IMG/VR virus record: IMGVR_UViG_3300046777_001387
Coordinates: 19,697 to 83,696 of that record
DNA: 64,000 nt
Reading direction: 5' to 3' (one strand)
Origin: a virus
Shown one piece after another: positions 17,077-43,310 of the stretch (the first letter of the stretch is position 1; each line of letters begins with the position of its first letter). The notes under the pieces are model-generated. The model did not search any database, was not told where the DNA came from, and was given only the letters and a program-made list of their open reading frames with translations. The position numbers were made by a program, and so were the translations under genes.

Positions 17077-19572
17077 ATGGCAAGTACAACAAATATTTCG
17101 CAAGTAGTTACCGCCAATACTTTTGGTCAGTGGAGAATCCAAACCAATCTTTTGGTTAATGATCTCAACGAGGTAACTCGCGGTGAGTTTGTGAAGCCTA
17201 CTGGTAACACAACATTTACTGTCGGAAGTCTAACTCTTGCAAACGCGACAGGAACCATGCTTACGGTTACTGCGGACGCTCGTATTTCTGGCAAGCTAAG
17301 TCTTAGAAACTACGAGCAGGACGGCGGTAACTCGTATTTGTATTCTCAGAGTCCAGATATTCAGTTCCAGAATGCTAACGTTATCTTTCAGGTTGCTGGA
17401 AATACTAGAACCAGATTCCTGTACAATAATACTTTCTCAAGCCTAGCCAACGTCAATGCCAATGGTTATATTGAGACCACTGGCACGTTTGCAAACAATG
17501 GCTTGATTATGAACGTCGCCAACGTACTTACGGTGCAAACTGCATCGGGTCAGGCGAACGTTAATGTTTCCACCAACGTAACTGTTTCAAGAAACACCAC
17601 GACGGGTAATCTGAGAGTTATTGATAGAGCCGATATTTCTTTGGCAAATATCGGCACTGCCTACGTCGACACTCTGTACGTTACTCAGCCGATTATTGCT
17701 CCTTCGGAAAGCGACACGAACCAGTATCGCCTGCGTGCTACATCGAATGATCGCGGCGACGGTTTCTTTGGTGTGAGACTGGGAACCTCGGCGAATGGTA
17801 ATGCTTGGATCAGATTCGACACTACTTCAGGCAACGTTTGGAGAGCAACTTCAAACAGCACCGAAGGAACTTATTACACGCTGCTGACTATGCAGAATGT
17901 GATAACTTCCACTGCATGCACTAGCACTTCTGATGTGGCTTCAGCTGCTTCTGTTAAGCAGGTGTATGACCTAGCGATCGCTGCCGCAGGATCTAACGAC
18001 GCTGCAAATACTGCCGCAAATACCGCAAGAGTTTCTGCTAACGGTGGAAGCTCTTTGGCAGCGCGCCAGCTAAACTTCGTCAATACTTCTACTGTATCGG
18101 TTACTGTAACTTCAGGCGCTGGTGCTGCTGCTGGTAATGCCAATATTGCTCTGAGTGTTATCGGTGCTATTGGTGCCCAAGGCGCGCAGGGCGCTCAGGG
18201 TGCCCAAGGCGCTACCGGTGCAGGAACTCAAGGTGCTCCCGGACCACAAGGTGCTGTTGGATTGCAAGGTCCACAAGGCGCTCTCGGACCGGGAACTCAA
18301 GGCGCTCCCGGACCACAAGGTGCTCAGGGCGCGCAGGGTGCTCGCGGCGGTGTGCCTTATGCATTCTCCAACTCAACCACCGATAGCGATCCTGGTAACG
18401 GAACAATTCGTTACAACAACAGCACAATTGGTTCTGTTTCTCAGTTGTTCATTGACTCTCTGGACAGAACAGGCGTAACTCAGACTGCATGGTTTAATTC
18501 TTGGGACGATAGTACGAACTCTGTAAAGGGATTTGTTACTATTAGAAGTGCCGTAGATTCTGGCGTAGTTACAAATGTGTTCAAGATCACTGGCGCTGTT
18601 ACTGCAGCAACTGGTTACCATAAGATTCCTGTGACCTATGTCAGCGGCAGTATCCCATCCAACGGATCTGAGTTGGTTATGGAGTTTTCTCCAGCCGGTG
18701 ATATTGGTCCCGGAACTCAAGGCGCTCCCGGACCACAAGGTGCTCAAGGTGCTCAAGGCGCACAAGGCGCAGTTGGTCCCGGAACTCAAGGTGCTCCCGG
18801 ACCTCAAGGTGCTGTTGGATCGCAAGGTCCACAAGGCGCTCTTGGAATAGGAGCGCAGGGTGCTGTGGGTGCCCAAGGAGCAGTTGGACAGGTTGGCGCG
18901 CAAGGTACACAAGGGGCTCGCGGCGCACAAGGTGAAAGAGGTGTTCAGGGTGCACAAGGAGCGCCAGGAACTCAAGGTGTACAAGGAGCAACTGGATTTG
19001 GTGCCCAAGGATACCAAGGCGTGCAAGGTGCTGTTGGTCAAACTGGTCCACAAGGTCAAATCGGTCAAACTGGTCCGCAAGGCGTGCAAGGTGCTGTTGG
19101 TCAAACTGGTCCACAAGGTCCACAAGGACAAACAGGAGCCTCTGGTCCAAGCACTGCAATTAATGCAACTCTAGTTTCCTCTGGAACTTATTACCTTGTT
19201 GGCGTTGGTGGATCTGGTACTAACCACACCCCAGCTGTCCAAGGAAGCATAACCTATAACGGTTCGAACGCCACGATTTATGCATATGACTTCGCTGCAA
19301 CTTCGGATGCCACGCTGAAGAACGTTATTGGTTCGATTGAAGATCCTCTGTCCAAACTACACGGCATTAATGGCGTTCGATTCTATTGGAAGTCTGACGT
19401 TGAGCAGATTAAGATGGAAGTCGGTCTGTTGGCGCAAGAAGTCGAAGCAGTTCTACCAAGTGCAGTTGTCCATAATAATGGAAACATGTACGTTCTCTAC
19501 GATAAGATTGTTCCGTTGCTAGTTGAAGCAATTAAAGAACTCGAAGCCAGAGTTAAGAAGTTAGAGGGGTAA
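17077..19572 (+). CDS. Tail fibre with collagen-like segments and a C-terminal intramolecular chaperone (peptidase S74)
   Basis: N-terminal 'NTFGQWRIQTN', Gly-X-Y blocks, and C-terminal 'TSDATLK...VGLLAQEVEAVLP..V...YDKIVPLLVEAIKEL'. Confidence 0.88.
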   Translation: MASTTNISQVVTANTFGQWRIQTNLLVNDLNEVTRGEFVKPTGNTTFTVGSLTLANATGTMLTVTADARISGKLSLRNYEQDGGNSYLYSQSPDIQFQNANVIFQVAGNTRTRFLYNNTFSSLANVNANGYIETTGTFANNGLIMNVANVLTVQTASGQANVNVSTNVTVSRNTTTGNLRVIDRADISLANIGTAYVDTLYVTQPIIAPSESDTNQYRLRATSNDRGDGFFGVRLGTSANGNAWIRFDTTSGNVWRATSNSTEGTYYTLLTMQNVITSTACTSTSDVASAASVKQVYDLAIAAAGSNDAANTAANTARVSANGGSSLAARQLNFVNTSTVSVTVTSGAGAAAGNANIALSVIGAIGAQGAQGAQGAQGATGAGTQGAPGPQGAVGLQGPQGALGPGTQGAPGPQGAQGAQGARGGVPYAFSNSTTDSDPGNGTIRYNNSTIGSVSQLFIDSLDRTGVTQTAWFNSWDDSTNSVKGFVTIRSAVDSGVVTNVFKITGAVTAATGYHKIPVTYVSGSIPSNGSELVMEFSPAGDIGPGTQGAPGPQGAQGAQGAQGAVGPGTQGAPGPQGAVGSQGPQGALGIGAQGAVGAQGAVGQVGAQGTQGARGAQGERGVQGAQGAPGTQGVQGATGFGAQGYQGVQGAVGQTGPQGQIGQTGPQGVQGAVGQTGPQGPQGQTGASGPSTAINATLVSSGTYYLVGVGGSGTNHTPAVQGSITYNGSNATIYAYDFAATSDATLKNVIGSIEDPLSKLHGINGVRFYWKSDVEQIKMEVGLLAQEVEAVLPSAVVHNNGNMYVLYDKIVPLLVEAIKELEARVKKLEG

Positions 19573-19575
19573 CTA

Positions 19576-20193
19576 ATGCCATTGCAAGGTAGCGCAAGTA
19601 CTGGCGATCCTCTAACTCTTAGAGAAATCGCCGGAGAATTTGGAAACGATGGCGGGATCAGTCTTCGAGATTATTATCGAGGAGGTCCACTTGTTTCCAG
19701 TGGCTCATCCTCAAGTATATCTACAAATCCTTCTTCTTTAACCATTCTACAGTTTTTAGGTGCTTCTGCTGTAAGTATTAACTTCAATAACTATACTATA
19801 TCTTCAGTTTCTGAGGTTTCTGGAAGTGCTACTGCAGCGTATGAAATTCATACTAATGGTAATGCATATCAAACGCTACAATACGACAGTGTAAATAGTA
19901 CGACATTGCTGCAGAGTGGAGCAATTGTTCCAGGTTCTGCCACGACGTCATATGAAGTTTACGTTATTCCGTCTACTACTGCTCTGTCGACATATGGAAC
20001 CTTGTATAGCTGGTTACCATTAACAAGTAATCGTGGATGGGGATTAACATACACTGATCCAACCTTTGGTGCTAGCGGTGGAAATGCGACCATAGTTCTA
20101 GATTTCCAACTCAGAGCAACTGGCGGATCAACAATTATCGACAACTGGCAAATTACTCTACAAGCAGCCGTTATTCCGTATCAAGGTTTTTAA
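19576..20193 (+). CDS. Putative fibre-tip adhesin/accessory protein
   Basis: Directly follows the S74 fibre; N-terminal 'LTLREIAGEFG...ISLRDYYRGG' motif; Ser/Thr-rich; AT-richer codons than neighbours. Confidence 0.65.
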   Translation: MPLQGSASTGDPLTLREIAGEFGNDGGISLRDYYRGGPLVSSGSSSSISTNPSSLTILQFLGASAVSINFNNYTISSVSEVSGSATAAYEIHTNGNAYQTLQYDSVNSTTLLQSGAIVPGSATTSYEVYVIPSTTALSTYGTLYSWLPLTSNRGWGLTYTDPTFGASGGNATIVLDFQLRATGGSTIIDNWQITLQAAVIPYQGF

Positions 20194-20205
20194 TAGAGAA
20201 GTAAT

Positions 20206-20538
20206 ATGGCATACGCAGAACTAACAATCGATCAAGGAACAACCTTTGAAACTTCCATTGATCTGACCAACGATGACGGAACCAGCGTTAATGTTGCGGG
20301 TTATGTCTTCAGCGCACAGGTTAGAAAATCATATTATTCTGTGAATCCTACTGCGAATATTACAGTTACTATCACTAATCCTGCTAGCGGCAATGTTAAG
20401 CTTTCGATTGATGCAGCCAATACGGCAAATATTAGGGCTGGAAGATACCTGTACGACGTAAAGATGACCAACACCACCGGTGTTACCACTAGAGTCATTG
20501 AGGGGATTATCACAGTAACTCCTCAGGTATCTAGATGA
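20206..20538 (+). CDS. Small Ig-like fibre adaptor protein (BppU/LtfC-like)
   Basis: 'LTIDQGTTF...GY..SAQVRKSY...AGRYLYDV...RVIEGIITVTP'; overlaps the next collagen gene by 4 nt. Confidence 0.7.
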   Translation: MAYAELTIDQGTTFETSIDLTNDDGTSVNVAGYVFSAQVRKSYYSVNPTANITVTITNPASGNVKLSIDAANTANIRAGRYLYDVKMTNTTGVTTRVIEGIITVTPQVSR

Positions 20539-22298
20539 AGATCGAGATTAAGAACCAAAATTCAGTTGGTTCTGTAAACGTCAATAACACTCCTGAAGTC
20601 GGCAAGGTCTCGATTAAGACCGGTGCTCCCGGACCCGCAGGCTCACAAGGTTCACAGGGCTTCCAAGGTACGCAAGGCTCTCAGGGTATTCAAGGCGCTC
20701 AAGGCGTCCAAGGCGCGCAGGGTGTCCAAGGTGCTCAAGGTGCACAAGGTGCACAAGGTTCGCAGGGACAGCAAGGTGCACAAGGCTTTCAAGGCGTTCA
20801 AGGCGCACAGGGTGTCCAAGGTGCTCAAGGTGCACAAGGTGCGCAAGGTGTACAAGGAGCTCAAGGCGTCCAAGGCGCGCAGGGTTCGCAAGGATTCCAA
20901 GGCGTTCAAGGAGCACAGGGAGTCCAAGGTGCGCAGGGAGTTCAAGGAGCTCAAGGTGCGCAAGGCGTTCAGGGTGCGCAGGGAGTTCAAGGAGCTCAAG
21001 GCGTTCAAGGTGCTACAGGAATTCAGGGCGCTCAAGGTGCACAGGGAGCACAAGGCGCTCAGGGTGTTCAAGGTGCTCAGGGATCACAGGGTTATCAAGG
21101 CGCTCTCAATAGATGGAAAGTCTTAACTGCAAACTATACGGCAGTAGACGGTGACCGTCTAATTGCAGACACTAGCTCTGGCACGTTTACTGTAACTCTA
21201 CCAGCCTCTCCTACTTCTGGTGATTATGTACAGATCTCAGACGGTAATGATTGGAGAACAAATAACCTTCTAGTCAATCCGAATGGATCAACTATTGAGG
21301 GTGTTTCGGATACACTGGCGCTCAATATCAAGGGTGTTACTGTAGAGTGTATCTACGACGGCACGACTTGGGAAGTTACAGCAACTACTGGTGCTCGTGG
21401 TGCGCAGGGTGCAATTGGCGCTCAAGGTGCCCAAGGATTCCAAGGTGTTCAGGGTACTGCCGGTGTTCTGGGTGGAGAAGGTCCGCAAGGTGCACAAGGT
21501 GTGCAGGGCGCCCAAGGATTCCAAGGCGTTCAAGGTACTGCAGGCGCGCAGGGTTCTCAGGGATATCAAGGTTCTCTAGAACGCTGGAAAGTTATAACTT
21601 CAACATATACTGCTTCTGATGGTGAAAGAATTCTTGCTGACACATCAGCAGGAAGCTTTACTCTAACTCTGCCAGCTGCTCCCACTGTTGGAACTTATGT
21701 GCAGATTAGTGATGGCGGCGACTGGTCAATCAACAACCTGACTGTAGGAAGAAACGGATCTTTAATTGAAGGTGTTGCTGATGATGTTCTTCTAGACTTT
21801 AAAAACGTCACAGTAGAGTTTATCTACGACGGCACGACTTGGGAAATTACTGCGACCACCGGAGCCAAAGGTTCTCAAGGATTCCAAGGCGTGCAGGGTG
21901 CAGTAGGTGCACAGGGCGCACAAGGCTCTCAAGGTCCACAAGGCGCTCAGGGCGCGCAAGGAATAATTGGCGCACAAGGCTCTCAAGGATTCCAAGGCGT
22001 ACAGGGTTCTGTCGGAAACCTGATTGAGAACCTATCAGTGGTGCAAACTGCCACTGATTATACCATGACTATCAATGATGATCTGGTTATTGGGACCAGC
22101 ACCAGCGAGATTTTTATTACTCTTCCAGACGTTGCAGCCAGAAACAAAGCCTATTATTTTCAAAATTTCGGCACTGGCTTCATGACTATTCAAACAGTTT
22201 CATCTCAGCTTATAAATAGTGATACCAAGCTAACATTACAGTTCAAGAATAGTTCTGTGAAGCTTATTTCGATAGGAACTAAGTTCCTTATCTTCTAG
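20535..22298 (+). CDS. Collagen-like fibre protein with repeated gp9/gp10-like beta domains
   Basis: Three G-X-Q blocks separated by two ~88-aa 'YTA.DG.R..ADTS.G.FT.TLPA.P..G.YVQISDG.DW..NNL' domains, plus a degenerate C-terminal copy. Confidence 0.85.
   Translation: MKIEIKNQNSVGSVNVNNTPEVGKVSIKTGAPGPAGSQGSQGFQGTQGSQGIQGAQGVQGAQGVQGAQGAQGAQGSQGQQGAQGFQGVQGAQGVQGAQGAQGAQGVQGAQGVQGAQGSQGFQGVQGAQGVQGAQGVQGAQGAQGVQGAQGVQGAQGVQGATGIQGAQGAQGAQGAQGVQGAQGSQGYQGALNRWKVLTANYTAVDGDRLIADTSSGTFTVTLPASPTSGDYVQISDGNDWRTNNLLVNPNGSTIEGVSDTLALNIKGVTVECIYDGTTWEVTATTGARGAQGAIGAQGAQGFQGVQGTAGVLGGEGPQGAQGVQGAQGFQGVQGTAGAQGSQGYQGSLERWKVITSTYTASDGERILADTSAGSFTLTLPAAPTVGTYVQISDGGDWSINNLTVGRNGSLIEGVADDVLLDFKNVTVEFIYDGTTWEITATTGAKGSQGFQGVQGAVGAQGAQGSQGPQGAQGAQGIIGAQGSQGFQGVQGSVGNLIENLSVVQTATDYTMTINDDLVIGTSTSEIFITLPDVAARNKAYYFQNFGTGFMTIQTVSSQLINSDTKLTLQFKNSSVKLISIGTKFLIF
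22211..22218 (+). promoter_or_regulatory. T4-type late promoter
   Basis: Exact TATAAATA, ~90 nt upstream of ORF 22307. Confidence 0.75.
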
Positions 22299-22306
22299 AG
22301 GTTTAA

Positions 22307-22657
22307 ATGTATCTGGAACAGACAAAACTAACCGATTCCACCGGCGCAGTAATTAATCCGGCTACAACTGACGTAAGCGATCAGATTATTCTGCTTCGTA
22401 GAATTATTAAATTGCTCGAGGCGCAGTCGGCTGTCGATCCTCAGCAACGCCAGAGAGTTACGCTTGACGCTATTTCAGCTTCACTAACTCTTGGTGCTGT
22501 CACGACAGTCGGTACTGTCACAACTGTCACAACTGTTACGACAGTTTCTTCAGTAACCAACATCGCAGCACTAAATGGTTGGAACCAGCAGATGTTTGCT
22601 GATCCAGCCAGAAACGCATACAACACTGGCATCAGAGCGCAGTTAACATTCTCTTAA
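22307..22657 (+). CDS. Hypothetical virion-associated protein with a Thr/Val repeat
   Basis: GAGG RBS and TATAAATA upstream; 'VTTVGTVTTVTTVTTV' repeat. Confidence 0.75.
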   Translation: MYLEQTKLTDSTGAVINPATTDVSDQIILLRRIIKLLEAQSAVDPQQRQRVTLDAISASLTLGAVTTVGTVTTVTTVTTVSSVTNIAALNGWNQQMFADPARNAYNTGIRAQLTFS

Positions 22658-22672
22658 TCGGAGTTTATATCA

Positions 22673-25600
22673 ATGTCACTATCGGCAAATAAGCTAATCA
22701 AACAAGTCGATCTACCAGTATGGGAGTGGACGCGCCCTCTTCCTGTTGCTCCGACAGCAGGTTTATCTTCTTCTTGCGTAGCTGATGCACCAGACTTTAA
22801 TCCGATCTCTGGTCGTTACATCTATATGCTTCTGAACGCTACCAACTTCTGGCGTTATGACACGGTTTCAGACACATACATGCAGATGGCTTCTCCCGGC
22901 ATTACGCCACTGTCTGCTACGAATATGCGTTTTGCCGGCGCTGCTGGGTATTATGGTCGCACGATTGCAGCAACATCGACTACGATGGACACTGGTCTTC
23001 CGTTCGGAAAACAGGCTATTGGATACAGAATTCGTATTATCTCGGGCAAGGGTGCAGGTCAGGAGCGCATTATCACTAATGTGAGCGACCCTATTGTTGC
23101 TGATTTTGGCGGCGCAACTTCTACTACGACATTCAGCTTGACTGATACCAATAAAAACTGGGGTGTAGTTGGAGCTACAAACAACGTTAATAACTGGATC
23201 GGTTATGTTATCAGAGTTATTGGCGGTACAGGCTTCACACAGGTTCGTAAGATTCTCCATAACAGTGCTACAGTAATTTCGGTGGCTGATACTAACATCT
23301 ATTCGCACGATACTTGGTCGTTACCAATGTCGCCAACAGCAGGTACTCCAGGATGGACCTCTCCTGGTACTGGCGCGATTTACAATATTGAATACTCAAC
23401 GATCACTGTAGATACTGCTTGGGACGTAACACCTGATAACACCTCTAGATACGTTATTCAGTCAGGTGGTATTTGGTTGGCTTCTGGCGCAACTGTTGGT
23501 AACGGTACTGTGACTCTGCAGTACTACAGCGTTCTAGAGGATATTTGGTACGCCAAGACATCTGTTAACAACATTATCCCAACTAACTTGACTGATCTGT
23601 GTATTGAGAGATTAACAGAAAACTCTACTCTCTGGTACACCGGATTAGCAACATCCGGAAGTACAACTACTCTAGTTGACGCTAACGCCAGCTGGACTGC
23701 AAATCAGTGGAGTGGTTATGAGACCACTATTTGGTCGGGAACTGGAAGAGGTCAAATAGCTGTAGTTGCCAATAATACAGGCAACACACTAACATTCACC
23801 ACTACACTAGATACTGCTCTAGACGCAACCAGTAGATATAACATTACTGGTTATGATGGTGGAATCTTCACATCCACTGCTGGTAGAATTGTATCAGATT
23901 CTTCAAAGAACTGGGCAGTGAACCGTTGGACAAACTATGCTGTGCGAATTGTCTCCGGCACCGGCGTCGGACAAACTAGACAAATCCTTTCCAATGGATC
24001 CGACAGCCTAGTTGTTTACGACTGCTGGAATGTTCAGCCAGATAACACTTCCAAGTACATTATCCAAAGCAACTCACAGGATATGTTCTTGGCTATCGGT
24101 GGTGGACAGCATACATATATGTATCGTGTCGGTGACACGGATATGCTCAGCCCAGCTAGAATCCTCGATGAGGGTATCAATGCTATAGCTTGTGCGATGC
24201 TGACTGATGGCACAAGTACCGCAACTCATGAAATCTATGAGCAAAAGCCTATTGCTATCAGTGCAATCTCTGGCACTACAACTATCACAGCTACTACTGT
24301 ACACCCCCATCAGCTAAAGGTTGGGCAGTGGGTTTCTATTCGTGGCGTCACTTCGGCAGCGGCTGACGTATACAACGTAACTGGTAAGGTTCAGATCACT
24401 TCTGTTCCTTCGCTGACAACGTTCACATATACTCCATTTGCTGCTGGTACTGGCACATATCAATATTCCAACAATATTGCGCTTGGTACAACTACTCTTA
24501 TTGATGCTGCCAAGTATTTCGCTGATCTGGCTACTGGCGGTTCTACGACTACTGTAACGTTCAGCAGAGCAACTCCGTCGAATATCAACGGATGGTATGT
24601 GTACGGTACCAATATTGCTGATGGTGCACAGATTGTAAGTGGTGCTGGAACAACAACTCTGACGCTAAACTTGACCGGTGCAGGCACTCCTTCGGGAACT
24701 ATTATCATCACTAAATGGCCAAGACCTGTGACAGCAACTTATGCTTCTGGTGGTGGTGCTGGTGTGTTCTCGGTTACACTTTCTGCGCCAATTCCAACCT
24801 ATGTTAAAGGATGGTTGGCTACAGGAACTAACATCGGTCTGAGTGCAACAGTTACTGGCGGCGAAGGCACTGCCACTCCGTTATTCTCAATTCAGTGCTC
24901 GGGCACTCCTTCTGGAACAATTACCTTTAGCTGCCCAACAAATAACTTGTTGCCAGTTACAGCGACATATAGCTCCGGATCGGGAACTTCGATTACTCTG
25001 AGCGGTAATGTGCCAAGCTATATTCGTGGTTGGCTAGTTTGCTGCTCGAACATTGCTAACGGAACTACTGTTACTGGTGGAGAGGGTACTTCTACAGTCA
25101 CGCTATCAACGCCAACAGCAGGAACTCCTTCTGGTACGGTAATATTCTATCCACCACCAATAGCGCCTGTTTTGCATTATGGAACAACTGGTATTCCAGC
25201 TTTATCTGCTACAGGCATGGTTTCTACGGGTCAAGTTTTCCAAATGGTTGCTCAGAATGCAACTAATCCGACCATCATGACTTCTATTACAGCGTCAACA
25301 ACCCCAACTGCTGGCGTCTCGAAGTATGTGCTCACCAGAAGATATGCGTTTGGACACGCATATGAAGGGCATAATATCAATTATCTTGATGGAATTGCGT
25401 TTGGTACACAGTCGACAACGACTCTAGTTGATACAAATGCTTTCTGGGCAACTGCTACAGGGTCTGGTGGATCTGCTGGTGCAACATCGTTCACTCTGTC
25501 TGCTCCAGGATCACCAATCCATAATGGATGGTACGTTTCAGGAACAGGTATCCCACTAGGCGCAAGAGTGGTGAGTGGTGCTGGCACCACTTCGATCACC

Positions 25601-27971: not shown

Positions 27972-27980
27972 GGTAATTAA

Positions 27981-31747: not shown

Positions 31748-31794
31748 AAGGGGGTCTGATCAGACCCCCTAGATCTTTTAAGAGTTAAAAAAGA

Positions 31795-35892: not shown

Positions 35893-38559
35893 ATGGCTAC
35901 CTATAGAAAATTCGTAGCAATCACCGCTAATGGAACTTGGACAGTTCCTACCGACTGGAGCAATACAAGTAACAGAATTGCTTGTATTGGTGCCGGTGGA
36001 AACGGTGCAGCTGTTGCCGACGGATCAGGTTCCGGTGGTGGTGGAGGTGGAGCATATTCTGCTGTTCCCAACGTTTCACTGACTCCAGGAGCCACAGTTT
36101 ATGTGACTATTGGTGCGGGTGGAGGTGGTGCTACTGGCGCAGATACTTGGGTCAATTGGGTTTCTAATACTGCTCCAGCTGCTACAACTAATGGCGTTCT
36201 TGCTGACGGTGGTCTTAACGGTTCAGGTCTGACTGGTGGTGCTGGTGGAACAGTAGCCAACTCTGTTGGAGATGCATCTCTAGAATTTGCAGGCGGTTCT
36301 GGTGGCAACGGTAACAATACTGGCGACACCGGTGGTGGCGGTGGTGGAGCAGCAGGTCCCGGTGGTGCTGGCAAAGACGGTGGTACTGGTGGTACTGGTG
36401 CTGGCGACGGCGGCGGTGGCGGTGGTGGTGCAGGCGGTGGTTCATCAACTGCTGGTTCTGGCACAACCACAGCAACTGGCGGTGCAGGTGGTAACGGTCC
36501 TCTAGGAACGGGCAGCGGCGCTGGCGCAACTGGCACAGGTACAGGTACTGCTGGCGGTGCTGGTACTGGTGCCGGTGGTGGTGGCGGCGGTGGTACTGCT
36601 GGTGTTGGTGGTGCTGGTGGATCTGGCAGCGACCTTGGTACTATTAGCAGCGTTTCTTATGGTGCTGGCGGCGGTGGTGGTGGTAATGGCGACAACAACG
36701 CAGCCACAGGAACTCCCGGCGCTGGTAACGGCGGTCTTTATGGTGGTGGAGGTGGAGGTCGCGAAACTGGTGGTACTGGTGGATCGGGCGCGGCTGGTGT
36801 TGTTTGGATTTGGTATGATGTTATTATCGATAGCCTATACTGGATTGGTGGTTCTGGCAACTGGGACACGACTACAACTTCTAAGTGGTCGACCACTTCT
36901 GGTGGTACTGCCAACACTGCTGTTCCTGACGAGTTCTGCGACGTTATCTTTAATGCAGCGTCAGATGCAGGCTCTGCATTCACAGTGTCTATATTAGCAG
37001 GCGCTAACTGCAAGAATCTAACTGTATCTGGTCTAGATCAGACAATGAACCTGTTCCAAGGCGCGAATACTCTTAACGTCAATGGATCTCTAGTTTTCTC
37101 TGGAACAAACCAGACATATTCACTGACCACAGGAGTGACTAGATTCACGTCTCCTTCTTCAGTGAATATTGACACTGCAAATATTGCATTCGGAAATGTG
37201 GTGTTTGTGGGAAGCGGAACGTTTACTCTTAGCAATACGCTCAACACTGCCTTCGGTACGATTACACATTTAAATGGCAACATCAACGCCAACAATCGTA
37301 ACGTGAGTGCCGGCGCGTTCTTCTCAAACACAACCAATACCAGATCTATCACAATGGGTTCTGGTACTTGGGAAGTAAGATCAAACTCCGATTGCTGGGA
37401 CGTTGTTGGAACCAACCTAACGGTAACACCAAACACATCCACGATTTATTTGTCGAATACTAGTTCAGACACAAGAACATTCGCTGGTGGAACTGAGCCA
37501 TACTACAACTTACGAATTGGTGGTCCTACCGGAAGTTCAGTCACTATTGTTACAGGGAATAATACCTTTAATGAGATATCTAGCGATAAAACTGTAGCTC
37601 ACACAATTCAATTCGAAAGCGGCTCTCTAACAAAAACCAACAGTTTCATAATTAGTGGATCATCAGGAAATCTTGCTAAGATAAACTCAGCGCCTGGAAC
37701 TTCTCAAGTCACACTTTTGCAATCCAAGTTTGCAACTAACGCTAGCGGTTCTACTGTGACCGCAACCTTTGATAACGCAACTACTGCAGGTTCTGTCATT
37801 GTTGCATTTCCTGTTGGTGATGATGCTTCTTCGGCTACGTTGTCCTCAGTAAGCGACAATAGAAGCGGTTCATACACACAACAATTCGGAGACATCATCA
37901 GCAGTTCGCGTTTCGTTCTTGCAGCATTCACAAATATTGCTGGTACAAGAGGAACTGCGCACAGTGTCACTGCGACATTTACAGCTGCTGTAACTTTTAC
38001 AGGATTGATGTTGGCAGAGTTTTCCGGGGTGAATACATCTAGTATTCTAGCAGGATCAGGAAGTGCCGAGGCACCATCAGACTACGCAGTACCGTACCAA
38101 GTAATCGGTCCTTCTGTCACCCCAACTGCTAATGGTATCCACATAGCTGCATTCTTCCAAGACGGTGCCTCTAATAGTGCATTCGTTGGATCGTCTGGAT
38201 GGACAGAACAATTTGAATTGCCACTAGGACAATTTGCTGGTGCAGGGTTATATACAAGAACTGCTACTAATGGTGCGGCGCAGCAACTTACAGTCGATGT
38301 AACAAATAACGTTGTTGACGTTGGTGGTATTATTCATCTGGTGATTCGAGAAGGAGTTGGCGCTTCCGGACATACTCTAGAGAAAACTGGTGGCGGTACC
38401 ATTTCAGTTAACTATCTAGACATAGCCAACTCCTCAGCAACTCCGAGTTCAACTTGGTATGCGTATAATTCAGTAGATTCAGGAAGCAATACTGGTTGGA
38501 TTATTTCAACAGGTGGTGCAGCCACTGCTGGAAACTTCTTTATGTTGCTGTTTGCTTGA
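35893..38559 (+). CDS. Glycine-rich putative adhesin/fibre-associated protein
   Basis: N-terminal ~310 aa with many GGGGG runs (polyglycine-II-type), followed by 'YWIGGSGNWD...WSTTSGG' and a beta-solenoid-like region. Confidence 0.75.
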   Translation: MATYRKFVAITANGTWTVPTDWSNTSNRIACIGAGGNGAAVADGSGSGGGGGGAYSAVPNVSLTPGATVYVTIGAGGGGATGADTWVNWVSNTAPAATTNGVLADGGLNGSGLTGGAGGTVANSVGDASLEFAGGSGGNGNNTGDTGGGGGGAAGPGGAGKDGGTGGTGAGDGGGGGGGAGGGSSTAGSGTTTATGGAGGNGPLGTGSGAGATGTGTGTAGGAGTGAGGGGGGGTAGVGGAGGSGSDLGTISSVSYGAGGGGGGNGDNNAATGTPGAGNGGLYGGGGGGRETGGTGGSGAAGVVWIWYDVIIDSLYWIGGSGNWDTTTTSKWSTTSGGTANTAVPDEFCDVIFNAASDAGSAFTVSILAGANCKNLTVSGLDQTMNLFQGANTLNVNGSLVFSGTNQTYSLTTGVTRFTSPSSVNIDTANIAFGNVVFVGSGTFTLSNTLNTAFGTITHLNGNINANNRNVSAGAFFSNTTNTRSITMGSGTWEVRSNSDCWDVVGTNLTVTPNTSTIYLSNTSSDTRTFAGGTEPYYNLRIGGPTGSSVTIVTGNNTFNEISSDKTVAHTIQFESGSLTKTNSFIISGSSGNLAKINSAPGTSQVTLLQSKFATNASGSTVTATFDNATTAGSVIVAFPVGDDASSATLSSVSDNRSGSYTQQFGDIISSSRFVLAAFTNIAGTRGTAHSVTATFTAAVTFTGLMLAEFSGVNTSSILAGSGSAEAPSDYAVPYQVIGPSVTPTANGIHIAAFFQDGASNSAFVGSSGWTEQFELPLGQFAGAGLYTRTATNGAAQQLTVDVTNNVVDVGGIIHLVIREGVGASGHTLEKTGGGTISVNYLDIANSSATPSSTWYAYNSVDSGSNTGWIISTGGAATAGNFFMLLFA

Positions 38560-38565: not shown

Positions 38566-38592
38566 TGTAAGCCTAAACTACAGAAGAACCCC

Positions 38593-41500
38593 ATGGCAGA
38601 CTTCCCAGCTAATCCCACTCTCGGTATTATATTCAAAACTACTGATAACACTCAGTGGTATTTTGATGGCTATTCTTGGAAAGCAGGAACCTTCGCGCCC
38701 AATCAGGCACTGATTCACTTCGCCACTTCTGCGAATAGTGGATCTACCGTAAATGCCAACTCTCTAAATTTCATTAATACTCAGTATATTCTGGCAAACG
38801 TCCAGCCGGGACTCACAGGCAACGCGAATATATCCTTCGCTTTGCAGTATCCAGTTATTGCTAATAACGAATTGATCGTCACTGCTAACGGTATTAATTT
38901 CGTCAATAATAACTCGGTTTTCGTCAACGTTGGTACTGGTATTAACGGCAACGCTAACGTTCAGTTCGGAATCACTATTCCTACTGCAGTAAACAGTGGA
39001 ACTGTAGTTATTGCCAACAGCTTCAACTACACCAATACAAATACAGTTAATGTTACTGTTTCTTCTGGTATTGCTGGCAATGCCAATATTGCTTTTGAAA
39101 GCTATATGGTGGCTAGTGCCAATGGAGGAAGTGGAGTTAAGACAAACTCTATAAACTTCGTAAATTCTCCTAGTGTGATTGTGAATGTGTCTCCTGATCC
39201 TGCAGGAAACGCTAATGTAGGATTCTCCAGCTTCTTCCCCACATCGGCTAATAGCGGATCTACAGTAACTTCTAACGGAATCAACTTCGTTAATACTTCT
39301 AGTGTTCAGGTTAACGTTCAATCTGGCTTAACTGGTAATGCAAACATTTCGCTGGAAAGCTTTTTCCCTACATCGGCTAACAGTGGATCCACGATAACAT
39401 CCAACGGTATTAACTTCATAAACACCAGAAGCGTTCAGGTAAACGTTCAATCTGGGTTGACTGGAAATGCGAATATCTCTTTCCAGAGCTTCTTTCCAGT
39501 TTCAGCCAATACTGGAAGCACCGTAACAGCCAATGGAATCAACTTTACGAATACAGAGTCTATTCTGGTTGCGGTTCAGACTGGACAAACTGGCAACGCG
39601 AATATTTCTTTCTCTGTTGCTACTACCAGAGCAATCAACGCGGACGCCACTCTAGGTGGTACAAACTATTACGTCGTCGGTGTAGCTGCTACTGGAGTCA
39701 ATTCAGTTCCCAATGCGAATACTGGATTTTATTTCAATGGTAATACGGCAACAATACTAGGCAGCCTTGGTGTGGGAGTCACACCCACACAAAAACTAGA
39801 GGTTAATCTAACTTCTGGTGGAACAAATATGTTCCTAGCTTCTACCACACAAACTCCATCTATTGGTGGCGGTGGTCAAGGACTTAGGTTTGGTTGGAAT
39901 ACAACTTCTGCTGGACCAACGATAAGACTGCTGCATGGTGGGTCATATAGCGACGCAGGATTATTATTCTCTACTTGGACTTCTGCAGCTGAAGTTGAGC
40001 GCATGCGCCTCGACACTGCTGGCAATCTTGGTATTGGTGCATCACCCTCATATCCATTGGATGTTGTTAAAAATGGTGTTCAAGTCGGCAGCACTACAGC
40101 ATATTTGATTACTAGATTTAGCGATGCGACGCCAAATAAAGGTATACACCTTGGGTATGATAGCGGTTCTCAAACTGGTATTGTTCTCAGCGCCAGTTCA
40201 GCGGCTTCCAGTAATCTAGCTTTCTGGAATTTTGACAGTGTTTCAACCGGTTGGGCAGAGCGCGCAAGAATCACTAGCACTGGCAGACTGGGCATCGGCA
40301 CTACTAATCCAGCATACAGATTGCAAGTAAGCGATTCCTCATCCAACTTTGTTTCTGTTATTTCTGGTACTAGCGCGACAGCAGGACTTCTTCTCGGCGA
40401 CACCGACAGTGCAACTGTTGGTCGTGTTGAGTACGAAAATCTTAATAATGCGATGACAATGTTTACTAATGGTTCTGAGCGTATAAGGATAACATCAGGC
40501 GGTAATGTTGGAGTTGGTGTCAGCCCTTCTGTAAGATTGCATGTTTTGACTGGCAACTCAGGCGAGGGAGAGGTTCGTGTAGAGAACTCCAGTGCAGTTC
40601 ATTCTTCAGGAATTAATTTCTGGACTGGCACACAGAGAGGATTTGTTGGTTGGAGAGGAACCAGCTCAACTTCTCCATTCAATGTCAGTGGAATGTATCT
40701 GATCAATTTCGACAACTCTAGCCTGATTCTCGGCACGAATAATCTTGAAAGAATGCGTATCGATTCTAATGGTAATGTGGGAATTGGATCCACTCCATCT
40801 GCTTCGTATAGACTACAGATTACAAGTTCCGGTACAGTTAATGGTATTTTGGTTACTACAGGCACTGGTGGTTATCCACAAGTTACTGGAACTGATGGCA
40901 CAGTTACGCAGTTTGGAGTATATGCTGCCAATGGAATTGGTTATGCCGGAACGCAAAGCAACCATCCTTACGTTCTACTAACCAACAATACTGAAAGAAT
41001 TCGTGTTGATACAAGTGGTAATATGGGTGTAGGTATCTCGCCAGCAGCAAAACTTGATGTGCTTGGCGTGATCAGATCGACTAGTCCCGATTCCGGAACA
41101 GTTCTAGATGCGACTGCCTTGAACGGCGGAACATCTTATATTGACTCTTTCCGATCTACTGGAAGTGCGTTAGTGTTCCGCACAAATAGCTCTGGATCTG
41201 GAGTTTCTGAGAGAGTCAGAATAGATAGCAGCGGCAATGTTGGTATTGGACTGTCGCCATCAACAAATCTCGATGTTCGAAGCGTCATACGAAGCACCAG
41301 CCCTGACAGTGGAACTCTGCTTTCCGTTCAAGCCACAAACGGAGGAGCAACATACATCGATGCCTTTAGAACTGCTGGAGCCACACTGTATCTAAGAGTT
41401 ACGAACGGATCTGGAACGCTATTAGAAAGATTTACTGTTACGCAAAACGGTATAACTGTCACTGGAGGCGTTGGTGTTACACAGGGAATTTATGCTAACG

Positions 41501-42471
41501 CTACTGACATAACTGCAGCCAGAACTTCTACGGCAGGCGCATATTATTTTGGTACTGGTGGATCAAAGTATCTATTTTTCGACGGAAGCAGCTACTTGTT
41601 TGGCGATACTGGAGTTTCTATCACTTCAACAACTCTTAATGCTACAGCGATCGCAGCTTCTTCTTTAACATTAACAACAGCATTGAGTGTTGCTAATGGT
41701 GGAACTGCATCCACCACTAGAAAAGCTGCCTCGTCTAGCATAGCCAACTTTGGACAGCTAGAAAATCACGGTACATATACTGATTTTAATTCAGTGCAGC
41801 AATGGGGCGGCACATATGTACAAGGTAGCACTAACGGACCGGGAATTCCTAGTGCAGGACAGTATTACCAGTGCATGTATTCAATCGGAGCGGACTATGA
41901 TTGGGCAGGGGGTAATGCTTATGCTATGCAAATGGCTATTCCAAGAACTCCAGTTGGTGGTGCGCCATATCTGTCTGTAAGATTTAAAGAGGGTGGTGGT
42001 GCTACTTCTGGGTGGGGAAGCTGGTCGAAGATTCATGCAGGATATGCTGACACAGCGGGTTCTGTTGCCACTAGCAGTAATGTGCAGATGAGTTCTCTTG
42101 GAGTCAATACGGCTGCGTCAGGAACTGCTGGAGAAATACGCGCCACCAATAACATCACTGCGTACTATTCTGATATGCGCCTCAAAAAGTATTTGGGTGC
42201 TATTGAAAACCCATTAGAAAAATTGATGTCGCTTAAGGGTTTCTATTATACAGGTAATGAAGAGGCAGGGAAGCTAGGTTACAATACAGAGACTCCAGAG
42301 GTTGGTGTTTCTGCTCAGGATGTTCTGGAAGTGCTTCCTGAGATCGTAAAGCCTGCTCCTATTGACGATAAATACTATACTCTAGATTATTCCAGACTAG
42401 TTCCTTTATTGATTGAAGCTATCAAGGAACAGCAGAATCAAATAAACGAGCTAAAAGCCCGTTTGCACTGA
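38593..42471 (+). CDS. Long tail fibre with C-terminal peptidase S74 chaperone
   Basis: 'MADFPANPT...W.FDG..W' N-terminus, seven ~43-aa repeats, six 'ER.R..S.GN.GIG'-type repeats, and 'YYSDMRLK...VGVSAQDV..VLPE.V...Y.RLVPLLIEAIKE'. Confidence 0.9.
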   Translation: MADFPANPTLGIIFKTTDNTQWYFDGYSWKAGTFAPNQALIHFATSANSGSTVNANSLNFINTQYILANVQPGLTGNANISFALQYPVIANNELIVTANGINFVNNNSVFVNVGTGINGNANVQFGITIPTAVNSGTVVIANSFNYTNTNTVNVTVSSGIAGNANIAFESYMVASANGGSGVKTNSINFVNSPSVIVNVSPDPAGNANVGFSSFFPTSANSGSTVTSNGINFVNTSSVQVNVQSGLTGNANISLESFFPTSANSGSTITSNGINFINTRSVQVNVQSGLTGNANISFQSFFPVSANTGSTVTANGINFTNTESILVAVQTGQTGNANISFSVATTRAINADATLGGTNYYVVGVAATGVNSVPNANTGFYFNGNTATILGSLGVGVTPTQKLEVNLTSGGTNMFLASTTQTPSIGGGGQGLRFGWNTTSAGPTIRLLHGGSYSDAGLLFSTWTSAAEVERMRLDTAGNLGIGASPSYPLDVVKNGVQVGSTTAYLITRFSDATPNKGIHLGYDSGSQTGIVLSASSAASSNLAFWNFDSVSTGWAERARITSTGRLGIGTTNPAYRLQVSDSSSNFVSVISGTSATAGLLLGDTDSATVGRVEYENLNNAMTMFTNGSERIRITSGGNVGVGVSPSVRLHVLTGNSGEGEVRVENSSAVHSSGINFWTGTQRGFVGWRGTSSTSPFNVSGMYLINFDNSSLILGTNNLERMRIDSNGNVGIGSTPSASYRLQITSSGTVNGILVTTGTGGYPQVTGTDGTVTQFGVYAANGIGYAGTQSNHPYVLLTNNTERIRVDTSGNMGVGISPAAKLDVLGVIRSTSPDSGTVLDATALNGGTSYIDSFRSTGSALVFRTNSSGSGVSERVRIDSSGNVGIGLSPSTNLDVRSVIRSTSPDSGTLLSVQATNGGATYIDAFRTAGATLYLRVTNGSGTLLERFTVTQNGITVTGGVGVTQGIYANATDITAARTSTAGAYYFGTGGSKYLFFDGSSYLFGDTGVSITSTTLNATAIAASSLTLTTALSVANGGTASTTRKAASSSIANFGQLENHGTYTDFNSVQQWGGTYVQGSTNGPGIPSAGQYYQCMYSIGADYDWAGGNAYAMQMAIPRTPVGGAPYLSVRFKEGGGATSGWGSWSKIHAGYADTAGSVATSSNVQMSSLGVNTAASGTAGEIRATNNITAYYSDMRLKKYLGAIENPLEKLMSLKGFYYTGNEEAGKLGYNTETPEVGVSAQDVLEVLPEIVKPAPIDDKYYTLDYSRLVPLLIEAIKEQQNQINELKARLH
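38720..39618 (+). repeat. Seven degenerate ~129-nt (43-aa) tandem repeats
   Basis: Consensus 'SANSGSTVTxNGINFxNTxSVxVNVQxGxTGNANISF'; units starting at 39232, 39361 and 39490 are exactly 129 nt apart. Confidence 0.9.
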
Positions 42472-42479
42472 TATAAATA
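42472..42479 (+). promoter_or_regulatory. T4-type late promoter
   Basis: Exact TATAAATA, intergenic, upstream of ORF 42510. Confidence 0.85.
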
Positions 42480-42509
42480 TAACCGTTGTAATTACTATAG
42501 GAGACTATT

Positions 42510-42698
42510 ATGTCGAATGAACAGTTGGATGCTATCTCGCAGCCGGTAGAGCAGACTGCTAAGATTGATTTGAGTATCGCTGAGTTGAATGTTGTGCTTG
42601 CGGCGCTTCAGGAACTTCCTCACAGAATCGCCGATCCAGTGATTAAGAAGGTTGTTGCTCAGGCACAGTCTCAGTTGGGTCAGCCCCAGCAAGGATAA
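42510..42698 (+). CDS. Small hypothetical fibre-associated protein
   Basis: TATAAATA and AGGAG upstream; 'LSIAELNVVLAALQELP...VIKKV..QAQ.Q'. Confidence 0.8.
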   Translation: MSNEQLDAISQPVEQTAKIDLSIAELNVVLAALQELPHRIADPVIKKVVAQAQSQLGQPQQG

Positions 42699-42707
42699 AA
42701 TCTACAA

Positions 42708-43310
42708 ATGTCTTGGGATGGTCGTATATCTCAAGTATCAATCAGCGAAGTAAACAGTGCTGTTGGGTATTCCTCAACAGCACAAACTTCTTTGAATGAT
42801 ACTAGATTCAGGAACCTAGCAAACAAAACAGGTTCTGGTACAACAATTCCTATGGCAGACCTCAGATTCGGTCTGCAATTACCTCTTGTTGAATTCACGT
42901 CAAGCAATACTGCCATTCTTGAAGTAGAAGATGCTTCTGCAGTAGCAGGGTACTCTTTCGCGAGTATCTCTATCCAGTTAAATTCTAACGGAACCGGTTC
43001 TTATAATTACACTTATATTAATAACAGCCCCAGTAGTGCAAGTCAATCTTTTACTTGGTTGACTGTCGGATCGGCTAGTGATTATGAGTGTCAAATGACA
43101 GTGCACTCTGGTTCTTTATCCTCTAGCTCTGGTACTGGAACTTCATTATCTTTATCTAGCACTAGATTTTGGACTTTGAGCGCAGAAGCAAGTGGAGGCG
43201 GTGGTGTCAGCCAAGTTAACACCTTTGAGGGTACCCTAGTTATTACCAGAAGCGGCGTGGTTGGTCCGTTTAGAAGATATTCTCTTTCTGCTGGCGCTGC
43301 TTCATTCTAA
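42708..43310 (+). CDS. Putative fibre-tip adhesin/accessory protein, paralog of 19576..20193
   Basis: N-terminal 'VSISEVNSAVG...TSLND..FRNLA...IPMADLR'; its C-terminal domain aligns by eye with the 19576 ORF. Confidence 0.65.
   Translation: MSWDGRISQVSISEVNSAVGYSSTAQTSLNDTRFRNLANKTGSGTTIPMADLRFGLQLPLVEFTSSNTAILEVEDASAVAGYSFASISIQLNSNGTGSYNYTYINNSPSSASQSFTWLTVGSASDYECQMTVHSGSLSSSSGTGTSLSLSSTRFWTLSAEASGGGGVSQVNTFEGTLVITRSGVVGPFRRYSLSAGAASF

Follow-up and report, generated by a model that had tools for sequence, protein, structure and literature searches.

A putative host-recognition cluster of module-built collagen fibres with predicted tip caps in an uncultured T4-like myovirus

Which fibre apparatus is encoded between the baseplate and neck genes of this virus, and how its fibres are held, is the question raised by the 64,000-nucleotide stretch of DNA analysed here (the window). 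Positions 17077–43310 hold 15 consecutive open reading frames (ORFs), all on the + strand. An earlier note read them as a branched tree of collagen-stalked fibres with interchangeable tips, standing in for T4 gp9–gp12 and wac. Inspection of the ORFs agrees with its count, the fifteenth gene being a 58-aa helical ORF (26248..26424, +) with AAGGAG ahead of its start. The explanation that we consider probable is a host-recognition cluster encoding module-built, separately anchored fibres, in which gp10-type XD1 domains act as spacers and small partner proteins as caps.

The upstream border is a VrlC-type baseplate protein encoded by two ORFs (9431..16860, +), one of 1413 aa with the DUF4815 domain (PF16075, E 1e-60) and one of 1056 aa, with phrog_358 on both halves. 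VrlC is split in two, since the 1056-aa ORF matches the C-terminal half of phrog_358, and the second half is a separate ORF in relatives too. It is followed by a 69-aa coiled-coil virion protein (16864..17073, +; phrog_473), a conserved first slot whose position is unchanged in four relatives at 44–68% identity. The neck proteins gp13 and gp14 (43348..44995, +; phrog_211, phrog_460, PF11649) form the downstream border. As the earlier note had stated, recognisable gp9, gp10, gp11, gp12 or fibritin genes were not found: tblastn of the T4 proteins gave no match on the 83.7-kb contig, which is about 47% complete, and neither did PF07880 (T4_gp9_10_N, covering the whole N-terminal region) at E up to 10.

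An island located between VrlC and gp13/14 has already been named the host recognition cluster (HRC) in pelagimyophages and cyanomyophages, which are normally without gp10-12 and wac (PMC7029224, PMC2984593). Of the proposed replacement of gp9–gp12/wac, the absence of the genes stands, but it is the normal, previously described state of such phages. The gp6 of the virus is 38–40% identical to those of Melnitz, HTVC008M and cyanophages, and the annotations of Melnitz and HTVC008M show the same layout as this island. Like the HRCs of HTVC008M, Melnitz, S-PM2 and Syn9 (Zaragoza-Solas et al. 2020, PMC7029224), the island lies between VrlC and the neck genes, lacks T4 gp10, gp11, gp12 and wac, contains several fibre genes including collagen repeats, and is hypervariable between relatives. 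It differs from them in the division of VrlC and in that its proteins are related to those of cultured phages at the level of modules at most; furthermore, neither glycosyltransferases nor metabolic genes were noted in it, in contrast to many HRCs and to one relative (G005). Its fibre genes were assigned to tail-fibre PHROGs. Judged by its sequence, the virus is an uncultured, T4-like myovirus related to Kyanoviridae, and the island is its host-recognition cluster.

At least eight large fibre-type proteins are encoded, and these are built from common modules: G-X-Q collagen, a gp10/TSP4-type XD1 beta-sandwich, a 119-aa knob, an 80-aa barrel-like domain, a 43-aa unit and the S74 intramolecular chaperone. 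This supports the view that the locus is a fibre or receptor-binding module assembled from a small, shuffled parts list. G-X-Q collagen is present in the five proteins expected (831, 587, 514, 1133 and 1362 aa), with Gln in the Y position of 49–83% of the triplets; four proteins exceed the Pfam cut-off for the collagen triple helix (PF01391), and the 1133-aa protein has just five G-X-Y triplets. Collagen-like phage fibres, such as those of rhizophage PhiM9 group 2 and of streptococcal/lactococcal adhesion devices, likewise have G-X-Y stalks broken by globular knobs, whereas the stalks found here are Gln-rich and Pro-poor, reach 927 unbroken residues (~265 nm if triple-helical) and carry knobs identified as XD1.

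Two of the fibres end in an S74 chaperone. Fibre 1 (831 aa; 17077..19572, +; Pfam Collagen and Peptidase_S74) consists, according to its segment map, of an N-anchor (residues 1–362), collagen (363–426), the 119-aa knob (427–545), a further collagen segment (546–692), a 50-aa tip (693–742) and the S74 chaperone (743–831); the N-anchor is 36–59% conserved among relatives and the distal part is variable. The 1292-aa fibre (38593..42471, +) starts with the N-anchor MADFPANP, 53–56% identical in relatives G003 and G004, and has its S74 chaperone from residue 1193 (42169–42468). The S74 domains score 43.8 and 37.3 bits against a Pfam cut-off of 22, and both open with the Ser-x4-Lys motif of the cleavage site (SDATLK at 743, SDMRLK at 1193). 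The 43-aa unit reported as common to both fibres is a 129-nt tandem repeat in the 1292-aa fibre (39229–39545), with further copies in fibre 1 and in fibres of relatives.

The 587-aa collagen fibre (20535..22298, +) has the N-anchor MKIEIKN, 83% identical in G004, two XD1 knobs (21108–21389 and 21579–21860) and a degenerate C-terminal copy (22023–22295). The N-terminal peptide that the earlier note saw in three proteins is indeed common to those of 514, 1133 and 1362 aa. In the 514-aa fibre (26427..27971, +) this peptide is followed by 45 collagen residues, a body and, at the C-terminus, a shared domain of 68 aa; a 428-aa ORF of G004 that is without the peptide has 47.5% identity to residues 80–514. 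Its 1133-aa paralogue (27981..31382, +) has the same N-peptide and C-terminal domain, with the body unit triplicated. The giant 1362-aa collagen fibre (31795..35883, +) carries an XD1 knob (32065–32334), the 80-aa barrel-like domain (32434–32673), the 927 unbroken G-X-Y residues (32674–35454) and a degenerate XD1-like C-terminal domain (35551–35880). Relatives G004 and G001 have giant collagens of 1504 and 1535 aa, respectively, in the same slot and bearing the same N-peptide.

Several other genes are interspersed among the fibres. A conserved 110-aa accessory protein (20206..20538, +; phrog_1084/phrog_3304), the gene of which shares its last 4 nt with the beginning of the following one, is found in all four relatives with 56–77% identity and in 14 of 80 gp13-linked loci. 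The slot of a small 116-aa protein without Pfam or PHROG match (22307..22657, +) holds a 108–139-aa ORF in relatives. The large, variable 1187-aa protein (22673..26236, +) is 42% identical to Pam2_66 of Pseudanabaena phage Pam2; its Atlas look-alikes are viral, with Kelch on 35% of the members of one cluster, and a Kelch-like beta-propeller is possible as a lead. The remaining ones are a 111-aa DUF7936 protein (31393..31728, +; PF25590, E 7e-21), an 888-aa protein that is rich in Gly, yet not collagen, and has no Pfam, PHROG or PDB match (35893..38559, +), and a 62-aa ORF between the 1292-aa fibre and its partner (42510..42698, +), for which a 44% match adjoins gp13 in three loci.

Comparison with T4 gp9/gp10 and the N-termini of the CBA120 tailspikes revealed similarity of the knobs by both profile and structure, in agreement with the gp9/gp10-like domains of the earlier note. 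The ~90-aa knob, of which two copies are present in the 587-aa protein and one in the 1362-aa protein, plus the two degenerate C-terminal copies, aligns to residues 61–145 of T4 gp10 (hhalign, probability 91%, E 1e-6) and to residues 74–175 of CBA120 TSP4 (7REJ), that is, to module XD1 (profile comparison, E 7e-13). Its AF2 model (pLDDT 96.6) matches the TSP4 N-terminal fragment (7REJ/7RFO/7RFV) with a TM of 0.86–0.88 in Foldseek, which also returned gp10 and gp9 (2FL8, 5IV5, 1QEX). One homologue, P0020, scores with PF07880, the match spanning its knob. The knob is a true homologue of XD1 of T4 gp10 and CBA120 TSP4, and profile homology, fold and a trimeric fibre context are common to the island and to T4 gp9/gp10 and TSP4 (PDB 5IV5, 1QEX, 7REJ). 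The known gp9/gp10/TSP4 proteins have a single XD1 after an N-terminal anchor, whereas in the island XD1 interrupts the collagen triple helix, with as many as two or three copies in one chain. One novelty is this placing of gp10-type domains like beads within collagen stalks.

In gp10 and TSP4, XD1 has been called a spacer without a trimeric binding face, and it is XD2 and XD3 that receive the partner trimers (PMC8825819). The analogy with the CBA120 branch point was therefore drawn to the wrong module, since the island knobs are XD1. The branching modules XD2 and XD3, which accompany XD1 in gp10/TSP4, were not detected in the island by Pfam, tblastn of gp10 or alternative hhalign alignments, which are weak tests, with structure models covering a minority of the domains. 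Collagen is present on neither flank of 88 of 109 homologous knobs and on both flanks of 15, and the N-termini of the proteins concerned are ordinary, diverse fibre anchors. A role of XD1 as a spacer fits these collagen-free flanks and ordinary anchors.

The islands of the four relatives are 18–26 kb in size and conserve the slot order, with N-anchors 36–83% identical per slot and unrelated distal parts. Likewise, among 80 loci examined within 10 kb of gp13, modules are shared, whole proteins never. Conserved slots and N-anchors combined with swapped distal parts suggest several independently anchored fibres rather than a tree. Each fibre type would then be fixed to the large VrlC-type baseplate or the neck via its own N-terminal anchor, as the conserved N-termini suggest. 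Because a single anchor peptide is common to the proteins of 514, 1133 and 1362 aa, these would use one type of site, in sharing or in competition. We consider it very unlikely that the collagen-stalk knobs are sockets into which the N-peptide of the 514-, 1133- and 1362-aa proteins plugs, as the earlier note had it. Three full XD1 knobs and three N-peptide proteins are present, the branching proteins gp10 and TSP4 contain a module homologous to the knobs, and the N-peptide, on a single protein in relatives, has here been copied onto two more. The copying looks like reuse of a module for a common docking site. Against the tree stand the location of the gp10/TSP4 docking surfaces on XD2 and XD3, neither of which was picked up by Pfam, BLAST or one profile, and the flanks and anchors of the homologous knobs, as befits a spacer. 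Relative G001, which has a single knob and a single protein with the N-peptide, is compatible with either a tree or a spacer.

It is also quite unlikely that fibres are joined end to end, for example the 587-aa to the 1362-aa protein, or that the fibre adjoining gp13 forms a neck or whisker structure replacing wac. When read end to end, a C-terminal XD1-like domain would meet an N-peptide to give a single, very long fibre with joints, as in T4 gp34-37. [quoted passage not shown] The 587-type protein is, however, only 258–306 aa long in two relatives and ends differently there. As to a whisker, the gene of the 1292-aa fibre and that of its partner occupy the wac position of T4, directly before gene 13.

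Each S74 fibre gene is followed by an ORF of about 200 aa, as had been observed: partner 1 (205 aa; 19576..20193, +), predicted to sit as a monomer on the mature C-terminal end of fibre 1 and cap it, and partner 2 (200 aa; 42708..43310, +; family HMM E 5.5e-14). BLAST sees no similarity between the two; profile comparison identifies them as homologues (hhalign probability 98%, E 2e-13). The family comprises 115 clusters without functional annotation, and two close relatives of partner 2 were found. The AF2 model of partner 1 (pLDDT 92) has an N-terminal region with three pseudo-repeats (SG.ISL.DI / P.SL.EYYRGG / TSG.ISL.DFYG) followed by an Ig-like beta-sandwich; across the family, a variable Ig-like domain is joined to a highly conserved attachment region.

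Fibre 1 and partner 1 were the pair chosen for complex modelling, in which one partner monomer was placed on the mature C-terminal end of the trimeric fibre with an ipSAE of 0.85; the best of three controls reached 0.00. In calibration, 58 of 80 solved complexes and 2 of 110 mismatched pairs attained 0.85; the score is a measure of model confidence, and our run, with a custom alignment and 3+1 chains, was set up differently from the calibration. Contact agreement between runs was at least 92% and partner pLDDT at least 86. The predicted interface comprises residues 733 and 737–742 of all three fibre copies and residues 7–16, 19, 27–31 and 52–58 of the partner. Gene neighbourhoods point in the same direction. 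In relatives of this phage, an S74 fibre precedes all four full-length partners and none of seven N-truncated ones. In IMG/VR, 28 of 43 distinct partners are located at most 600 nt downstream of an S74 ORF and 6 further ones follow a fibre ending at the same ..N[VI]TA[FY].. motif (34/43 in total). Against a link with fibres, the remaining 9 are not preceded by any recognisable fibre, and the N-terminal module is part of a Ser/Thr-rich protein not adjoining a fibre gene in Vibrio phage KVP40. From the model of one pair and the neighbourhoods, there appears to be a separately encoded tip piece for at least both S74 fibres; to this extent the interchangeable tips of the earlier note stand, detached from the tree.

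The resemblance of the partner to gp38 is, by analogy, one of arrangement only. In T2/T6/S16 gp37-gp38 (6F45), the fibre gene likewise ends in an S74-like self-cleaving chaperone, and a small protein from the next gene sits as a single monomer on the new trimer C-terminus, as predicted here (PMC12032242, PMC7289586); each of the two S74 regions has a match to chain A of 6F45, which was deposited under the name 'long tail fiber distal subunit'. The partner, in contrast, shows neither sequence nor fold similarity to gp38 and no polyglycine sandwich: no Pfam family, PF05268 included, matched either partner or any of 86 family members, and 6F45 is absent from the fold matches of the partner. Its distal domain is instead an Ig-like sandwich, and attachment is predicted via three short pseudo-repeats. 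A small post-fibre gene product has also been proposed to sit on the fibre tip in Alteromonas phages V22/A5, where these chaperones resemble and replace intramolecular chaperone domains (PMC10579305), whereas in the island the fibre itself brings an S74 domain and the partner is folded differently.

It seems rather unlikely that the partners serve, instead of as adhesins, as chaperones of assembly or as transient caps that cover the tip and come off no later than at adsorption. Chaperones are common just downstream of fibre genes (T4 gp38, Mu Tfa, Alteromonas V22 gp27), a transient-cap role has been proposed for the Alteromonas proteins (PMC10579305, PMC7289586), and the modelled contact is limited to the last ~10 fibre residues. 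On the other hand, the S74 fibres already bring their own folding chaperone, and the partner was modelled on an end existing only once that chaperone has departed. Moreover, strong conservation of the attachment region next to a variable Ig-like domain is what one would expect if the receptor-binding tip were swappable.

For the fibres of this virus, the XD1 knobs of the collagen stalks would thus serve as spacers or trimeric nodes, with weak sugar binding as a possible addition, rather than as sockets for branches. At the distal end, the S74 domain would cut itself off the fibre and free three C-terminal strands, which one ~200-aa partner monomer would cap via its three N-terminal pseudo-repeats, one per chain. 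The Ig-like domain would then point outward as the distal tip, either as a gp38-like adhesin or as a removable cap; receptor binding by it is a guess, because its structural neighbours are generic (Z at most 6.7). The small, widespread and unnamed partner family is predicted to cap the cut end of two fibres, and represents a novel lead.

The window derives from an 83.7-kb IMG/VR viral contig with an estimated completeness of 47%, of which it covers bases 19697-83696, and all large genes of the window are carried on the plus strand. Upstream of the fibre island (17077-43310), Pfam and PHROG matches identified the genes gp25 (starting at 2061), gp6 (2455), a gp7-like gene (4520) and gp8 (7810), as well as a 1413-aa DUF4815 protein (9431). 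A 1056-aa ORF (13690) matches the C-terminal half of the same PHROG as the DUF4815 protein, and a 69-aa virion protein (16864) directly precedes the island, while the neck genes gp13 (43348) and gp14 (44117), also identified by Pfam and PHROG, are located downstream. All of these are encoded on the plus strand. Gp6 is 38-40% identical to its counterparts in Methylophilales phage Melnitz, Pelagibacter phage HTVC008M and cyanomyoviruses; the records of these phages are assigned to Kyanoviridae and have a gene layout like that of the window. The baseplate protein VrlC/DUF4815 is a single gene of about 2000 aa in HTVC008M and Melnitz; in the window (9431-16860) it is split into the 1413- and 1056-aa ORFs, and the second half is an ORF of its own also in three related IMG/VR genomes (G003, G004 and G005).

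The region corresponds to the host recognition cluster of Zaragoza-Solas et al. (PMC7029224), where collagen repeats are among the listed domains. A near-identity DNA search with the island gave no match in cultured phages. The earlier note had placed the island in the role of T4 gp9-gp12 and wac. Searches by tblastn with T4 gp9, gp10, gp11, gp12 and wac gave no match on the contig (about 47% complete). Cyanomyoviruses without wac and genes 10, 11, 12, 34, 35 and 37 have been described previously (Clokie et al. 2010, PMC2984593). Since the absence of wac and genes 10-12 is already on record there, the replacement characterises the whole group and not one particular phage. Taken as a whole, the island is what would be expected for this phage group, and the picture of T4-like aquatic phages is unchanged.

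Every element described earlier from the sequence was recovered: the 15 genes, the collagen, the shared N-terminal peptide, the S74 pair, the 43-aa unit and the gp10-like domain. The genes comprise 14 ORFs of at least 60 aa and one 58-aa ORF (26248-26424) with an AAGGAG site in front. Collagen-like G-X-Y runs are found in the 831-, 587-, 514-, 1133- and 1362-aa proteins, with Gln in the third position of 49-83% of the triplets, scarce Pro and about 1-2% charged residues; in the 1362-aa protein 927 collagen residues are uninterrupted. The 888-aa protein is rich in Gly, yet not collagen. An N-terminal peptide (M..S[IL]....L.SSLP.GPQG, hereafter the N-peptide) opens the 514-, 1133- and 1362-aa proteins. 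Peptidase_S74, a self-cleaving chaperone domain, forms the C-terminal end of both the 831-aa protein (fibre 1, 17077-19572; domain starting SDATLK) and the 1292-aa protein (38593-42471; SDMRLK). The 43-aa unit corresponds to a 129-nt tandem repeat at 39229-39545, and further copies occur in both S74 fibres. The island is indeed modular, as modules are common to several proteins and reshuffled among relatives.

Few of the remaining proteins could be assigned. Pam2_66 of Pseudanabaena phage Pam2 shares 42% identity with the 1187-aa protein, for which the clusters of look-alikes are viral; Kelch occurs in 35% of the members of one cluster and is no more than a lead. No family match was obtained for the 888- and 116-aa proteins or for the body of either the 514- or the 1133-aa protein, phmmer against PDB sequences returned only chance-level rows for the 1187-, 1133-, 888- and 110-aa proteins, and tblastn of the fibre 1 N-terminus and the 1133-aa body against cultured phages gave no match. 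A match of fibre 1 to 8zxl, named 'spindle/axial fibril', was discarded since the alignment covered collagen repeats only, and a literature search on these names found nothing relevant. The 514- and 1133-aa proteins (26427-31382) have a 68-aa C-terminal domain in common (..GFWNATP.VQPTT..FDGYT.AQVV.ALR..GLLA), found also in a 428-aa protein of G004, and a body unit of about 200 aa is present in three copies within the 1133-aa protein. The 119-aa non-collagen knob of fibre 1 (18355-18711) is a second widespread, collagen-flanked 'bead' module; elsewhere it occurs in 35 of 80 gp13-linked loci, twice in a 699-aa protein of G004 and once in a 1883-aa protein of G005.

A different non-collagen insert of about 90 aa has two copies in the 587-aa protein and one in the 1362-aa protein, and each of these proteins also ends in a degenerate copy. 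Pfam PF07880 gave no score anywhere on the contig. A domain-restricted search retrieved 81 proteins homologous to this knob, and a profile built from 104 extracted copies matched T4 gp10 residues 61-145 (91% probability, E 1e-6, 33% identity), aligned weakly with T4 gp9 and, in a search of PDB sequences, matched CBA120 TSP4-N residues 74-175 (E 7e-13). The AF2 model of the knob (pLDDT 96.6) placed TSP4-N on top in Foldseek (TM 0.86-0.88, rmsd 1.5-1.7 Å), followed by KP1/Lilla1 baseplate proteins, T4 gp10, a tailspike depolymerase and T4 gp9. Given these profile and fold matches to gp10 and TSP4, the gp9/gp10-like domains claimed in the earlier note are therefore correctly named, with the qualification that the module is XD1.

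This qualification bears directly on the branching that had been proposed. XD2 and XD3 are the domains that bind partner trimers in gp10 and TSP4, whereas XD1 'appears to serve as a spacer' and its fold recurs in domains of CpaA and StcE that bind glycans (Chao et al. 2022, PMC8825819). In agreement with this recurrence, the knob has weak Pfam matches to StcE_b-sandwich and Phage_depo_C (E about 0.02), and 6O38 and 4DNY appear low in its Foldseek list. The proposed branching mechanism was thus built on the wrong gp10 module. Collagen is present on both flanks of only 15 of 109 homologous knobs, and knob-bearing homologues start with diverse, ordinary fibre N-terminal anchors. XD1 in the collagen stalks of the island may act as a spacer; its repetition there is a new context, and one that could matter, for this domain of gp9, gp10 and TSP4.

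A scan with gp13 yielded 455 related loci, of which 80 were kept (54-74% identity). Up to 10 kb upstream of gp13 these loci have only modules in common with the window: the 119-aa knob, the 110-aa protein (14 of the 80), XD1 (7 of the 80), the S74 end, an 80-aa domain and the N-terminus of the 1292-aa fibre. We located VrlC in four longer relatives (G001, G003, G004 and G005), fetched the missing parts and rebuilt the islands, which are 18-26 kb long and conserved in slot order. Of these relatives, G001 measures 161 kb and is 96% complete. The slot order runs from the 69-aa protein through fibre 1 (anchor MA..SNISQV.TANTF..WR), at least one partner (a small protein of about 200 aa), the 110-aa protein (56-77% identity across the four relatives), an MK[IV]EIKN collagen/XD1 protein, a protein of about 110-140 aa, a large variable protein, a small ORF, the N-peptide-bearing giant collagen (1504 aa in G004 and 1535 aa in G001), a protein of medium size, a MADFP.NP fibre and at least one further partner to gp13. 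The anchors are 36-83% identical across relatives, and the distal parts are reshuffled or unrelated. This suggests that there are several types of fibre and that each keeps a conserved attachment end of its own. Among the relatives, only the giant collagen carries the N-peptide; in the window phage the 514- and 1133-aa proteins start with the peptide as well, and their body is 47.5% identical to the 428-aa G004 protein without it. Judged from these sequences, one attachment end was probably copied onto two further proteins. With such slots and anchors, separate anchoring of the fibres on a large VrlC-type baseplate appears more probable than a tree.

The island of the window holds structural-type genes only, unlike those of G003 (locus L016), which includes non-structural genes such as short ORFs ending in KGITF-like motifs, and G005 (L088 and L031), with 2OG-oxygenase-like and glycosyltransferase-like ORFs, in both cases judged by eye. 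The last 4 nt of the 110-aa gene (20535-20538) are also the first of the 587-aa collagen/XD1 gene, which suggests translational coupling, and the two genes are neighbours in all four relatives too. The T4 late-promoter motif TATAAATA has four exact plus-strand sites (22211, 42472, 47532 and 53935), not significantly more than the 1.45 expected from shuffles; the one at 42472 is 1 nt past the stop codon of the 1292-aa fibre gene and precedes a 62-aa ORF and the second partner. Sigma-70-like and terminator-like sites were no commoner than in shuffled sequence. The 66 nt that separate the DUF7936 gene from the giant collagen gene contain a perfect 9-bp GC-rich hairpin, AGGGGGTCTGATCAGACCCCCT (31749-31770), with a T-rich tail on the minus strand.

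The partners of the two S74 fibres, 205 aa (19576-20193) and 200 aa (42708-43310), showed no similarity to each other by BLAST and no match in Pfam or PHROG. No relative could be confirmed when IMG/VR was scanned by pattern with one partner at a time, and tblastn of both against cultured phages gave no match. A HMMER scan with the 205-aa partner retrieved 115 cluster representatives, mostly of 180-200 aa; 48 of 86 scanned members matched phrog_30374, which is annotated without function. Cultured phages of Xanthomonas, Ralstonia, Burkholderia, Rhizobium and Vibrio also have the family, and candidates for carrying fibre and partner together are Xanthomonas phages phiXF1, Rb1 and RTH11, Ralstonia YL1, Burkholderia JC1 and Rhizobium IG49. 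The profile of this family matched that of the 200-aa partner and a few relatives (98% probability, E 2e-13), and the family HMM also matched partner-slot ORFs of the relatives, so that the two partners are homologues. The consensus of the family opens with three similar motifs (SG.ISL.DI..EFGG, P.SL.EYYRGG and PTSG.ISL.DFYGA), and the AF2 model (pLDDT 92) has an extended N-terminal stretch of about 65 residues followed by an Ig-like sandwich. Fold searches with this model returned generic Ig/PapD-like rows only (Foldseek best E 1e-3, VIA Z at most 6.7), and the partner profile had no match in PDB sequences or Pfam.

One partner was modelled with three copies of fibre 1 residues 645-742, the end left by cleavage before Ser743. 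The complex scored 0.85, whereas none of three controls scored above 0.00; at least 92% of contacts agreed between runs and partner pLDDT was at least 86. Residues 733 and 737-742 of all three fibre chains contact partner residues 7-16, 27-31 and 52-58, which in the model are the three N-terminal motifs, one per chain. In a calibration that differs from our run in alignment and chain set-up, 58 of 80 solved complexes attained a score at this level, as did 2 of 110 mismatched pairs, so that the model supports binding of the partner to the mature fibre 1 C-terminus, and no more.

Gene neighbourhoods support the pairing independently of the model. Among relatives of the window phage, an S74 fibre precedes all four partners that have the N-terminal region and none of the seven that are N-truncated. 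Since the 86 rows of the partner alignment were together too diverse, the IMG/VR scan with the YYRGG motif used a 15-row subset and gave 261 loci. Counting distinct partners with enough upstream sequence, 28 of 43 have an S74 ORF no more than 600 nt upstream, six follow a fibre ORF ending at ..N[VI]TA[FY].., the motif preceding the S74 cut, and nine have neither upstream. KVP40.0254 of Vibrio phage KVP40 (L170, 5938-6531) is a counter-example, with the three-motif attachment region but no adjoining fibre gene. It carries a Ser/Thr-rich low-complexity tail in place of the Ig-like domain.

The S74 parts of both fibres match chain A of 6F45, deposited as 'long tail fiber distal subunit', an entry that we take to be the S16 gp37-gp38 complex. 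The closest known arrangement to an S74 fibre with its partner is that of T2 and S16, where gp37 has a cleaved chaperone domain and carries the monomeric adhesin gp38 on its tip (PMC12032242, PMC7289586), although the partner is not a gp38 homologue. A serious rival is that the partner would act as a chaperone or transient cap, as has been proposed for Alteromonas phages (PMC10579305). The separate tips of the earlier note hold up as a prediction from the complex model and the partner neighbourhoods. We infer, with decreasing breadth, independent anchoring, a spacer role for XD1 and capping of the fibre by the partner, the last being the one that the model and the neighbourhoods support. That the partners form a widespread, unnamed class of monomeric tips, in which three short pseudo-repeats, one for each chain of the end freed by S74 self-cleavage, overcome the three-to-one symmetry mismatch, and that XD1 knobs also dock the N-peptide fibres, giving a branched, collagen-stalked apparatus with exchangeable tips, is as a joint reading very improbable.

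A testable rule follows from the partner family: downstream of a fibre ending in, or cleaved to, a ..N[VI]TA[FY].. strand there would be a protein that combines three attachment repeats with a variable Ig-like domain. If this is true, the receptor-binding tip of many S74 fibres would be a separate gene that is now annotated 'hypothetical', with consequences for host-range prediction and fibre engineering.
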